Source: Candidatus Latescibacterota bacterium (lineage in GTDB: Bacteria > Latescibacterota > UBA2968). From it: a DNA stretch of 64,000 bases. Below, piece by piece: positions 20,964-25,370 of the stretch. Position 1 is the first letter of the stretch. Every line of letters starts with the position of its first letter. The stretch is from contig CBDDPH010000002.1 in the NCBI GenBank assembly GCA_965232265.1, positions 2,008,290-2,072,289 on the forward strand. Reading direction: 5' to 3'. Made by a program: the position numbers and the translations under genes. Below the pieces are notes generated by a model. That model worked only from the letters and a program-made list of their open reading frames with translations. It had not been told where the DNA came from and ran no database searches.

Positions 20964-21884
20964 ATGGGAAAATACGATACCATCTCCAAACGTCTCATCC
21001 AGACCTATCCACATGATTTTATACGCTTTACGCTCCAACGGGACGATGTCGAGTTTCTCGCGCTCCTCGACACAGAACAACCCACCATTGACGCACACCG
21101 CACAGATAGCTTTATCCATGCTCGAATCGGCGATGAAGAAGTATTGCTTCACTATGAGTTTCAAACCACCGACAGTACCGATCCCCCCATGCCGCGTCGC
21201 ATGGCGGGTTATATTGGTCGCGCGATTGAGCAGTATGAGGAGCCCATCCATTCCACAGTCATTTATTTGCGTCCCGATACCGGGCACAACGATCCGGGGC
21301 ACCACATCCAGTCGCGTTATGGCTACGAGATTGTGATTCAATATCAGGTGATCAGACTAATAGAGGTAGAAGGACAGCGCGCCCTCAATGCGGGTCATTC
21401 GGGCTTGATCCCATTTGCATCCTTGATGAAGCCGCCCGAAGGGATGGGTTCTGATGCGTGGTTTGGTGCGTGTGTTGACCGCGTACGAGACCTGCCGCTG
21501 GATGAATCAGCCAAGCGCGATTTTCTTGCTGGTCTGTCGGTTTTGGGTGGGTTGGTGCATGATCGTGACCTGATTTCTAATCTTCTTTCAAAGGAGGGGT
21601 TGATGGATCTCATTCGGGAATCATCTTTTGCCCAGTACCTGCTTGAGCAAGAGATAGAGGAAAACAAAGAACAATGGCTCAAGCAGGGCATTGAACAAGG
21701 GGAAAGAAAAAGCACGCTTGCAGGTCTTCTGGATGTGTTGGCGATTCGATTTGATCTGCCTGAAGCAGATCTCCTATCTGATCGCCTTGCAACCATTGAT
21801 GATTTGCAACACCTCAAGCAGTTGCACCGTGCGGCGGTCCAGGTGTCCAGCCTTGAGGCATTTGAACAGCTGTTAGATGCCTGA
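20964..21884 (+). CDS. Rpn family recombination-promoting nuclease / putative transposase (PD-(D/E)XK, YhgA-like) with C-terminal DUF4351
   Basis: N-terminus MGKYDTISKRLIQTYPHDFIRF... and C-terminal ...LAIRFDLPEADLLSDRLATIDDLQHLKQL... are typical of this family. Start at ATG 20964. Confidence 0.55.
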   Translation: MGKYDTISKRLIQTYPHDFIRFTLQRDDVEFLALLDTEQPTIDAHRTDSFIHARIGDEEVLLHYEFQTTDSTDPPMPRRMAGYIGRAIEQYEEPIHSTVIYLRPDTGHNDPGHHIQSRYGYEIVIQYQVIRLIEVEGQRALNAGHSGLIPFASLMKPPEGMGSDAWFGACVDRVRDLPLDESAKRDFLAGLSVLGGLVHDRDLISNLLSKEGLMDLIRESSFAQYLLEQEIEENKEQWLKQGIEQGERKSTLAGLLDVLAIRFDLPEADLLSDRLATIDDLQHLKQLHRAAVQVSSLEAFEQLLDA

Positions 21885-22093
21885 CGCGATTTCCCACCAT
21901 CAAATAGCCACAGAAAATGTAGGGGCGAAAAATTTTTCGCCCCGCCATGCGAACAAATAAAAAAATCCGCTCACAAAAAACCACTCGCCATACCTTCAGT
22001 GAGCGGTTTTTTAGGTTATGATACAGGGTCAAATAGGTATTAATTCAGGATTCGAATTAGCCAAAAGCACCTTCAGCCTATAAATCAGTCTGT

Positions 22094-22783
22094 TCATCTT
22101 TCAGGCACATAAGACAGGTCCTTCAAGAGGGCGTATTTTTCAATCAAAATTTTGAATTCGGCTCCTGTTTCATGTGATCTATGAAAAGAAAGAACGCCTA
22201 ATTCAGCAGTTGACATTTGGGCGCGGATGAGGTCGACGTAGAAACTCTTTTTTATTATGTCATCACTTTGTTGGTCAACAAATTTGATGATATTGTAAAA
22301 GTGGGAAAAATAACGGCCAACATGCGATTGGTGCTCATCAAAGAACGCATTACGGTCTGCTCCGTCATTAAGTTGCCTGAGTGCATAAATAAAGTAATCT
22401 CTCCCTGAATATGTTATCGGCTGATTATCAACAGTACTGCTAAACTTTATAGAATTGACAATCTCGTTATGCAGGCCAAAAAGCTGAAAAAAAGAACTCT
22501 CAAAATTTTGTTTCTGTAGAATTTCCTTTTGATCCTTCAATTCCGTCCGTTGATGCTCAAGTTCCTCTCTTTGCAATAGTATTGCCCAAATAACACCTGC
22601 AAAAGCCAATCCAGCAAACAGCGTATTAAGGGCCCCAAATGAGTCTCCAAATTTCCCTCTATTATTTTCTAAAGTCCATTCTGTGCCCCAAATAATATAT
22701 CCATACCCTATACAAACGACGAATATCGTTAAAAATACGAACAATGGCCAATACCGCCTGAAAAAATATAATCGTTGATTCAT
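22094..22783 (-). CDS. membrane-anchored Abi-like (putative abortive-infection) protein in a low-GC island
   Basis: Two N-terminal TM helices, a coiled segment and a cytoplasmic domain. The gene is about 39% GC against about 55% flanking. Strong RBS GAGGAGG. Confidence 0.35.
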   Translation of the reverse strand: MNQRLYFFRRYWPLFVFLTIFVVCIGYGYIIWGTEWTLENNRGKFGDSFGALNTLFAGLAFAGVIWAILLQREELEHQRTELKDQKEILQKQNFESSFFQLFGLHNEIVNSIKFSSTVDNQPITYSGRDYFIYALRQLNDGADRNAFFDEHQSHVGRYFSHFYNIIKFVDQQSDDIIKKSFYVDLIRAQMSTAELGVLSFHRSHETGAEFKILIEKYALLKDLSYVPER

Positions 22784-22956
22784 CTACCCCTCCTCAATAA
22801 AGTATAATCGGCACGAACACCTACCATCACCCTCTTATCACTGGATAGAACCGTTCCAGTGCCGGCTCTGCTCATCCTTACATCATGACCCGCTTGCCGG
22901 CTGCTGCCCGCAAAGGCAGGGTTGCGGGCAAGCAGGTCCCAATTTAGACGATATTC

Positions 22957-25053
<2,097 letters not shown>

Positions 25054-25370
25054 AGTGGGTTCCTTTCTCGAAGATGGTGTGACGGGTCTCACTGTGCTAG
25101 TCTTCATTGTGCGACCTCCTCCTTGCTGTTGTGGTGATAACAGGTTATATTTGGGTTCAGAGTGGGGTGCGGTTGCCCAACCGTTCCTATCTCTGTATTC
25201 TCGGCGGAGGGCTTTTATGGCTTCCCAACCGATAGCCCTCCGCTCTGCCTGTGCTGAATACAGCAGACAGGCATCCCCGCAGCCATCATCTATGCCTGCG
25301 AGATTTTTTTGTTTATGCCATCTCTATCCCTCCAATCGTAGTTGCGTGGATTTCACATTGCCGTTTGAAA

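Follow-up and report, generated by a model that had tools for sequence, protein, structure and literature searches.

A putative membrane-anchored abortive infection protein of the AbiC/AbiP family encoded by a low-GC gene in a Candidatus Latescibacterota bacterium

Introduction

Does a short, low-GC gene that stands alone among metabolic genes in a Candidatus Latescibacterota bacterium encode a phage defence protein, and how could such a protein act? The question arises from a 64-kb stretch of DNA, referred to below as the window, and from an original prediction made from its letters, in which the gene at nucleotides 22094-22783 was described as a low-GC single-gene island encoding a membrane-anchored Abi-like protein and proposed as a horizontally acquired anti-phage gene.

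AbiC and AbiP were first described decades ago, and the AbiP phenotype is a block of phage DNA replication and of the transcription switch. AbiC, encoded by the Lactococcus lactis plasmid pTN20 and also named Prf, is the founding member behind the Pfam family putAbiC (PF16872). Grouped as AbiC/P, the two proteins differ in their transmembrane (TM) helices, of which AbiC has two and AbiP a single one (PMC13064643). [quoted passage not shown] The toxicity of AbiP is triggered by the major tail protein and abolished by escape mutations in that protein (PMC12184496). The published AbiC and AbiP phenotypes do not alone demonstrate membrane disruption. PdpSau, an AbiP-like membrane-anchored protein, causes depolarisation and permeabilisation upon infection (PMC10127798), and a lactococcal AbiC-like protein that shares 38% identity with AbiC had no activity against the phages with which it was challenged (PMC11381338).

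Results

The gene and its surroundings

The gene is an intact open reading frame (ORF) of 229 codons that starts with ATG. The features of the locus are listed below.

22094..22783 (stop codon included), minus strand: coding sequence of a predicted 229-aa protein of the AbiC/AbiP (putAbiC) family (ORF list, PF16872, PADLOC AbiP and AbiC models)
22789..22794, minus strand: Shine-Dalgarno sequence AGGAGG, 5 nt 5' of the ATG (read straight off the sequence)
21961..22012, no strand assigned: bidirectional hairpin terminator with A- and T-tracts (inverted repeats I4/I6, RNA fold)
22887..22940, minus strand: GC-rich hairpin 3' of the 716-aa gene, GC up to 0.61, at the edge of the low-GC segment (RNA fold)
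21950..22830, no strand assigned: low-GC segment of about 880 bp with a GC content of 0.34-0.44 (100-bp composition profile)
21922..21943, no strand assigned: copy of the host's dispersed palindrome GGGGCGAAAAATTTTTCGCCCC, just outside the low-GC segment (context only)

The AGGAGG sequence agrees with the strong ribosome binding site that the gene had been predicted to possess. The terminator at 21961-22012, identified by inverted repeats and RNA fold, is common to the putAbiC gene and to the gene at 20964-21884, which is convergent with it. Transcriptionally upstream and on the same strand, nucleotides 22957-25107 encode a secreted protein of 716 aa with Ldl_recept_b/DUF5050 propeller repeats, for which no full-length homologue of more than 44% identity was found. 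Because the hairpin at 22887-22940 terminates this gene, the putAbiC gene is considered a separate transcription unit. A sigma-70-type promoter was sought upstream on the strand of the gene and was not found, a result that is uninformative for this phylum. The convergent gene shows similarity to genes on plasmids that bear the annotation Rpn family nuclease or DUF4351 (24-31% identity, lowest E value 3e-21) and matched no Pfam or NCBIfam model. The description of a solitary gene lying between an Rpn gene and a propeller gene is confirmed: there is a ribosome binding site and a terminator of its own, propeller repeats on one side, and on the other an Rpn-like resemblance that no model picks up. 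Further neighbours are an adenosine deaminase, a PhyH dioxygenase, a purple acid phosphatase, a GFO_IDH_MocA oxidoreductase and a racemase-like enzyme; the neighbourhood in the window is metabolic and not a defence island. The palindrome GGGGCGAAAAATTTTTCGCCCC is found in nine copies in the 64-kb window at up to 3 mismatches, none being expected by chance.

The GC content of the gene is 0.378 as compared to a mean of 0.530 in the other long ORFs of the window (sd 0.024, n=37; z = -6.2), and its GC3 is 0.361 versus 0.574 in the same ORFs (z = -5.0). The lowest-GC 690-bp stretch of the window is the putAbiC gene, and of all stretches of this size only 0.6% have a GC content below 0.40. The low-GC segment is sharply bounded, at about 21,950 and 22,830, and encloses the gene, the region of its ribosome binding site and the terminator. 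The low-GC single-gene island was thus correctly recognised; of the GC figures originally given, the direction was right and the values were not, as the whole window has 51.7% GC instead of about 55% and the gene 37.8% instead of 39%. Recoding the protein with host codon usage split the GC deficit of the gene into 0.079 due to amino acid composition and 0.073 due to codon choice. Direct repeats, att-like repeats and target-site duplications were not found at the edges of the segment, which bear no insertion scars, nor were tRNA, integrase, phage or plasmid genes found flanking this copy.

Membership in the putAbiC family

Comparison to Pfam revealed a match to putAbiC (PF16872; E = 7.6e-20, 71.7 bits versus a cutoff of 22) in which amino acids 150-223 correspond to model positions 1-75 of 80. 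The best PADLOC match was the AbiP model (E = 8.9e-8, amino acids 61-217 against model positions 5-174 of 223), followed over amino acids 146-198 only by the AbiC model, which has 306 positions (E = 3.6e-7). These similarities are modest for the window protein taken alone. When 38 close relatives were compared to PADLOC, the AbiP model matched all of them (best E = 7.3e-18), the AbiC model matched 24 (best E = 2.7e-10), and no other PADLOC defence family was matched by any. PHROG 8999, a group of unknown function, matches the window protein at 1.3e-26, and a search of NCBIfam with the same protein found no family model. On the basis of these similarities the window protein almost certainly belongs to the AbiC/AbiP (putAbiC) family. 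The kinship to Abi proteins that had been suspected is supported by Pfam and PADLOC, two of the resources that the original prediction had named for a check, and AbiP and AbiC are the only defence families that match.

A search of 5.8 billion proteins identified 529 homologues, with PF16872 present in all 120 listed, and the best non-self homologue was only 61% identical; no record of the identical protein was found. When a profile was run against 1.84 billion cluster representatives, 17,828 hits were obtained at E ≤ 1e-3, of which 2,767 had E ≤ 1e-30; these hits are representatives of 50%-identity clusters. Homologues found on plasmids carry the NCBI annotation "putative phage abortive infection protein". 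The putAbiC family is therefore very large and already catalogued in Pfam, PADLOC and NCBI annotation, and the window gene is one more member. A literature search for 'putAbiC' returned nothing, and an 'AbiC' mention in an integron preprint, which refers to the unrelated Abi_C/AbiJ domain, was set aside.

Architecture and conservation of the protein

The regions of the protein, all encoded on the minus strand, are the following.

aa 12-33 (22685..22750, minus strand): TM1, a hydrophobic, poorly conserved helix (Kyte-Doolittle 19-mers up to 2.3; AF2 helix 3-37)
aa 50-70 (22574..22636, minus strand): TM2 (LNTLFAGLAFAGVIWAILL), proposed effector or oligomerisation helix (hydropathy, conservation)
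aa 71-111 (22451..22573, minus strand): predicted juxtamembrane coiled-coil stalk with Leu/Gln heptads and the conserved QKQNFESSFFQL motif (AF2, heptad steps)
aa 112-229 (22097..22450, minus strand): predicted cytoplasmic globular domain, a beta-hairpin followed by six helices (AF2, block pLDDT mostly 80-96)
aa 150-223 (22115-22336, minus strand): match to Pfam putAbiC (Pfam coordinates)

Two hydrophobic 19-mers with values above 2.0 are located at amino acids 12-33 and 50-70. Net charges are +3 for the N-terminal tail and -1 for the loop that joins the two helices, and therefore, following the positive-inside rule, both termini are predicted to be cytoplasmic (N-in/C-in). The AlphaFold model obtained from the 38-sequence alignment is confident (mean pLDDT 85.4) and includes a TM1 helix of amino acids 3-37, one continuous helix of amino acids 45-111, a beta-hairpin at amino acids 113-126 and six helices within amino acids 129-216. 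As amino acids 45-111 are modelled as a single helix, TM2 is predicted to run unbroken into the cytoplasmic stalk. Hydropathy and model together agree with the layout first read from the sequence, i.e., two N-terminal TM helices, a charged segment and a cytoplasmic domain. A fold search of the model against PDB and BFVD gave nothing significant, and no nucleic-acid-binding fold; a profile search of PDB sequences with the window protein gave nothing significant either.

Conservation was computed on 143 diverse representatives with a median identity of 40% to the query. TM2 is the most conserved of all regions (3.17 bits per column, top-residue frequency 0.74), followed by the juxtamembrane stalk at amino acids 71-88 (2.88 bits), the QKQNFESSFFQL region at amino acids 89-111 (2.66 bits), the Pfam-defined domain at amino acids 150-223 (2.56 bits) and TM1 (1.96 bits, top-residue frequency 0.21). 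Near-invariant residues are G46, F49, G50, L55, F56, A60, F61, Q71, L75, Q78, R79, E81, L82, Q92, F94, F98 and F99 in the N-terminal half and G127, Y158, F159, Y163, Y182, Q189, S191, E194 and L198 in the C-terminal half, and no catalytic motif is recognisable among those found in the 143 representatives. Residues L55, F56, G58, L59 and A60 are invariant in the 38 close relatives. TM2 bears a small-residue face, FAGLAFAG, of a kind typical of helix-helix packing. Since a passive anchor would not be expected to be under the strongest constraint of all regions, TM2 is probably more than that.

The length of the stalk, taken as the distance from the TM2 motif to the QKQNFE motif, falls into classes of 29, 36, 43, 50, 57 and 64 aa. 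One mod-7 class holds 124 of the 134 relatives that have both motifs; these sequences are non-independent, yet six length classes share the phase. The a/d positions are occupied by I68, L75, L82 and L89 and by Q71, Q78, Q85 and Q92. Changes in length by whole heptads suggest a coiled coil whose register is preserved between TM2 and the cytoplasmic domain, which implies mechanical coupling between them. The soluble region, stalk and domain (amino acids 72-229), has a pI of 5.8, and in the subfamily the soluble part has a median pI of 5.74 with only 12% of the values above 8. An acidic soluble part fits poorly with the non-specific nucleic acid binding of AbiP, a local basic patch being possible, and does not fit the positively charged domain of PdpSau.

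Relatives and their genomic contexts

A scan of GTDB species-representative genomes identified 350 relatives. The closest are located in complete Candidatus Latescibacterota MAG chromosomes, one of which has four copies, and others belong to Proteobacteria, Bacteroidota, Gemmatimonadota, Nitrospira and Acidobacteriota. The GC content of the gene is lower than that of its flanks at all 78 loci with enough flanking sequence (mean difference -0.105) and tracks that of the host (r = 0.78). At 61 loci the deficit consists of 0.055 due to amino acid composition and 0.054 due to codon choice, and GC3 is below that of the host in 55 of them. As low GC is constant in the family, it cannot date the acquisition of the window copy. 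The proposal of a horizontally acquired anti-phage gene is supported, with the qualifications that low GC found family-wide argues only weakly for a recent acquisition of this copy and that the defence role is predicted from homology.

A neighbour on the same strand lies upstream of the gene at 53 of 64 loci. The conserved partner gene that this arrangement suggested was rejected after clustering of the neighbours, as no conserved partner emerged and the largest cluster among genes within four positions, HsdS, occurs at 6 of the 64 loci. Homologues sitting in core-genome contexts with native GC are therefore not what the survey found; the gene is the poorer in GC at every locus compared, and its contexts are varied.

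Two Latescibacterota genomes (L087 and L088) have the arrangement hsdM, hsdS, putAbiC, variable cargo, hsdR, i.e., a Type I restriction-modification (R-M) operon in which the cargo between putAbiC and hsdR comprises HTH/M78, HicB and a Dcm-type methylase. This place within the hsd operon is a typical defence-island slot. With the genes adjacent to the relatives, 352 PADLOC models were matched, a count raised by redundancy among the HsdS models, compared to 29 models with control genes located 7 kb or more from the relatives. The neighbours of other relatives include TIR-domain, AAA_15/AAA_21 ATPase, HTH and transposase genes, and housekeeping genes too, and the three closest homologues are found among FGE-sulfatase or propeller/LRR genes. 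Copies were found on 18 plasmids, and 3 phage records contain the gene as well. In one of the latter, that of the f237-like Vibrio inovirus vB_VipaK, it is part of the accessory region and comes after zot, the Akkermansia phage Moulinsart carries a member, and one family member adjoins a Phage_CRI replication gene. Two relatives (L028 and L061) are disrupted by IS elements; their N-terminal-only matches were considered as domain-swapped variants, an idea rejected because they are IS-truncated pseudogenes. Overall the family shows the behaviour of accessory, defence-type genes.

Divergence of the window copy

At 229 aa versus a family median of 281, the window protein is at the compact extreme of the family. 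Its stalk of 36 residues belongs to the second-shortest class, it has no central insert, and with 9 residues after the EKYALL motif versus a median of 26 it is missing the conserved C-terminal tail. A recent frameshift was considered as the origin of the short C-terminus and rejected, as no remnant of the tail was found downstream of the gene in any frame. The protein keeps 26 of the 30 columns with at least 90% conservation, with three substitutions at these columns (L to F, L to M and F to S). At columns with at least 80% conservation it matches the consensus in 75%, below the relatives' 5th percentile of 0.79. The window copy is intact but divergent and, being compact as well, could be weakened or specialised.

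Discussion

We consider it probable that the window gene is a stand-alone, single-protein anti-phage factor of the abortive infection type that belongs to the AbiC/AbiP group. An anti-phage role of this particular copy, as judged from its sequence, is likewise somewhat favoured, and the specific membrane-effector mechanism is put forward tentatively, at a lower level of confidence than the role itself. The cytoplasmic domain would sense infection, probably by binding a phage protein (AbiP is triggered by the major tail protein), and the signal would reach the highly conserved TM2 by way of the coiled coil with its locked register. The TM2 helices may then pack by their FAGLAFAG face, and the resulting oligomer would depolarise or permeabilise the inner membrane. 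Phage replication would thereby be halted and the infected cell sacrificed, as has been reported for PdpSau, which is AbiP-like. Depolarisation, or the formation of a pore, is proposed on the precedent of PdpSau, a protein likened to ours by its description.

The resemblance to known systems is partial in each case. Like AbiC, the window protein is the product of a single gene, carries two TM helices at its N-terminus with a helical extra-membrane domain after them, and belongs to a type found on mobile DNA in many hosts; unlike AbiC, whose model has 306 positions and whose host is Lactococcus, it has 229 aa and comes from a Gram-negative-type environmental host, with its closest relatives in Latescibacterota. 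It shares with AbiP the character of a membrane-anchored single-protein Abi system and the layout of stalk and helical domain, but has two TM helices where AbiP has one, and an acidic soluble part where that of AbiP binds nucleic acids. The trigger of AbiP is the major tail protein. PdpSau, a Staphylococcus aureus prophage protein, can be likened to it by published description as a membrane-anchored, AbiP-like single protein, and differs in having one TM segment and a positively charged C-terminal domain with an OB-like region, and in being prophage-borne. RexB of the lambda RexAB system is likewise a membrane protein, one that abolishes the membrane potential once an infection has been sensed; there is no kinship in sequence or fold, and in RexAB the sensor is a separate protein, whereas sensor and effector are proposed here to be in one chain.

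The protein could instead act as AbiP does, with an activated cytoplasmic domain that binds RNA or single-stranded DNA non-specifically and blocks the early-to-late switch and DNA replication, the hairpin being merely a tether. AbiP reportedly prefers RNA over ssDNA and needs both its binding domain and its TM anchor (PMC13064643), and the PADLOC AbiP model is matched by all 38 relatives. We nevertheless regard this mode as unlikely here, as the soluble part is acidic both in this protein and across the subfamily, the strongest constraint lies on TM2 and not on the soluble domain, and neither PDB nor BFVD yielded a nucleic-acid-binding fold. The constraint on TM2, the stalk of whole heptads and the acidic domain together point to a mechanism of sensor, coiled coil and membrane effector rather than to nucleic acid binding.

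The remaining alternatives concern the role of the gene. The least probable in our estimation is that it is a moron, i.e., cargo of a mobile element for superinfection exclusion that blocks the entry of competing phage DNA at the membrane, in which case the window copy would be the remnant of an element. Members do occur in phages (PHROG 8999, vB_VipaK, Moulinsart, and the one beside the Phage_CRI replication gene), and the conserved periplasmic loop (G46, F49, G50) and TM2 could face an incoming phage. However, the window copy lacks flanking integrase, phage or plasmid genes, tRNA and repeats, many copies are chromosomal and lie within R-M operons, and PdpSau leaves adsorption intact, with phage DNA present and transcribed in the cell (PMC10127798). 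It is also improbable, if slightly less so, that the copy is inactive or decaying, or that its product has a role at the membrane unrelated to phages; the low GC would then reflect AT-rich amino acids and low expression. Half of the GC deficit is indeed compositional, the copy is at the compact and divergent extreme of the family and is missing the C-terminal tail, relatives decay as seen in the copies broken by IS elements, and its neighbours in the window are metabolic. Against this, the ORF is intact, with a strong ribosome binding site and its own terminator, the absence of a tail remnant indicates that it has not been newly truncated, the protein keeps 26 of the 30 near-invariant residues, and the AT bias is also present at the codon level.

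Coming back to the abortive infection factor that we favour, a bolder and rather doubtful extension of it is that the putAbiC family as a whole may be a one-chain transmembrane immune switch, in which the membrane hairpin, above all TM2 with its small-residue face, would kill, the acidic domain would be a protein sensor and not a nucleic acid binder as in AbiP, and a coiled coil that can change in length by whole heptads only would couple the two. With its 36-residue stalk, and having neither the central insert nor the C-terminal tail, the window protein would then be near the minimal functional core of a family of about 18,000 clusters.

As low GC is universal in the family and about half of it is compositional, GC dips near such genes are no evidence of recent transfer. 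The window gene itself adds little, and the value of the analysis lies at the level of the family, in mechanism-relevant clues for AbiC and AbiP.

Genes flanking putAbiC in the window

The putAbiC gene is preceded on the same strand by a propeller gene and faces a convergent Rpn-like gene.

22957-25107, minus strand: 716-aa gene, signal-peptide-like at the N-terminus, with a C-terminal Ldl_recept_b/DUF5050 propeller
20964-21884, plus strand: Rpn-like/DUF4351-like gene

The 716-aa protein also includes dockerin/EF-hand-like repeats and a run of about 27 glycines. It shares 95% identity with another protein, P0125, over a part of each only, and propeller domains related to its own are found in many proteins of differing architecture. 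It seems to be a shuffled surface protein from a family with multiple copies. Annotated homologues of the gene at 20964-21884 are clearly recognisable on plasmids of cyanobacteria and Clostridium, with E values down to 3e-21. No Pfam or NCBIfam model matched the gene, even with the cutoff relaxed to E <= 10; it represents a divergent Rpn-like/DUF4351-like branch lying outside the current models.

Other features of the window

A 22-nt palindrome, GGGGCGAAAAATTTTTCGCCCC, is scattered through the window in nine copies at three or fewer mismatches, when none is expected by chance (positions 777, 4405, 21922, 25371, 25409, 25950, 27164, 42083 and 44738). The copies are mostly intergenic, and the palindrome is a host repeat, either REP-like or terminator-like.

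Another low-GC zone (0.43-0.47 GC) encompasses nucleotides 12,960-16,407 and includes the following features.

Within 12,960-16,407: three paralogous small genes in tandem, each with its own RBS, whose peptides begin MTERMTSMPEQ...
13884-14324: glycine-rich 146-aa ORF with a weak resemblance to microcin E492 (E = 0.22)
14352-14690, minus strand: IS4 transposase fragment
14912 to about 15460: membrane-protein gene with an internal duplication, the repeat units being about 246 nt apart
15565-16407: Rce1-like CPBP protease gene

This zone resembles a bacteriocin or peptide-toxin locus accompanied by an immunity gene. The zone, which includes the IS4 fragment, adjoins a point, at about 16,400-16,800, where the GC skew flips sign sharply, from about +0.2 across 1-16 kb to between -0.1 and -0.3 across 17-34 kb, independently of gene strand. 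Possible explanations for this switch are a replication terminus or origin and a rearrangement breakpoint.

Mobility of putAbiC and its place in Type I R-M operons

Among the putAbiC relatives in other genomes, some copies are cut short at about aa 130-150 by IS insertions (locus L028, 9605-11249; locus L061, 9899-11498), and one Latescibacteria chromosome, OX638317.1, carries four paralogous copies (L011, L030, L043 and L053). Taken together, the truncated copies and the four-copy chromosome indicate that gain, duplication and loss of putAbiC are all rapid in this phylum.

Two further relatives lie within Type I R-M operons.

L087, 5702-17298: operon with putAbiC on a Latescibacterota chromosome
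L088, 6657-18226: operon with putAbiC on a Latescibacterota chromosome

The interval between hsdS and hsdR in these operons is filled by 4-5 kb of variable cargo, consisting of putAbiC, an HTH/Peptidase_M78 pair, HicB, a Dcm-type methylase, a HATPase and small unknown ORFs. Beyond hsdR, L087 has a gene for an AAA_21 ATPase. The hsdS-hsdR slot could be a source of new defence genes in Latescibacterota.
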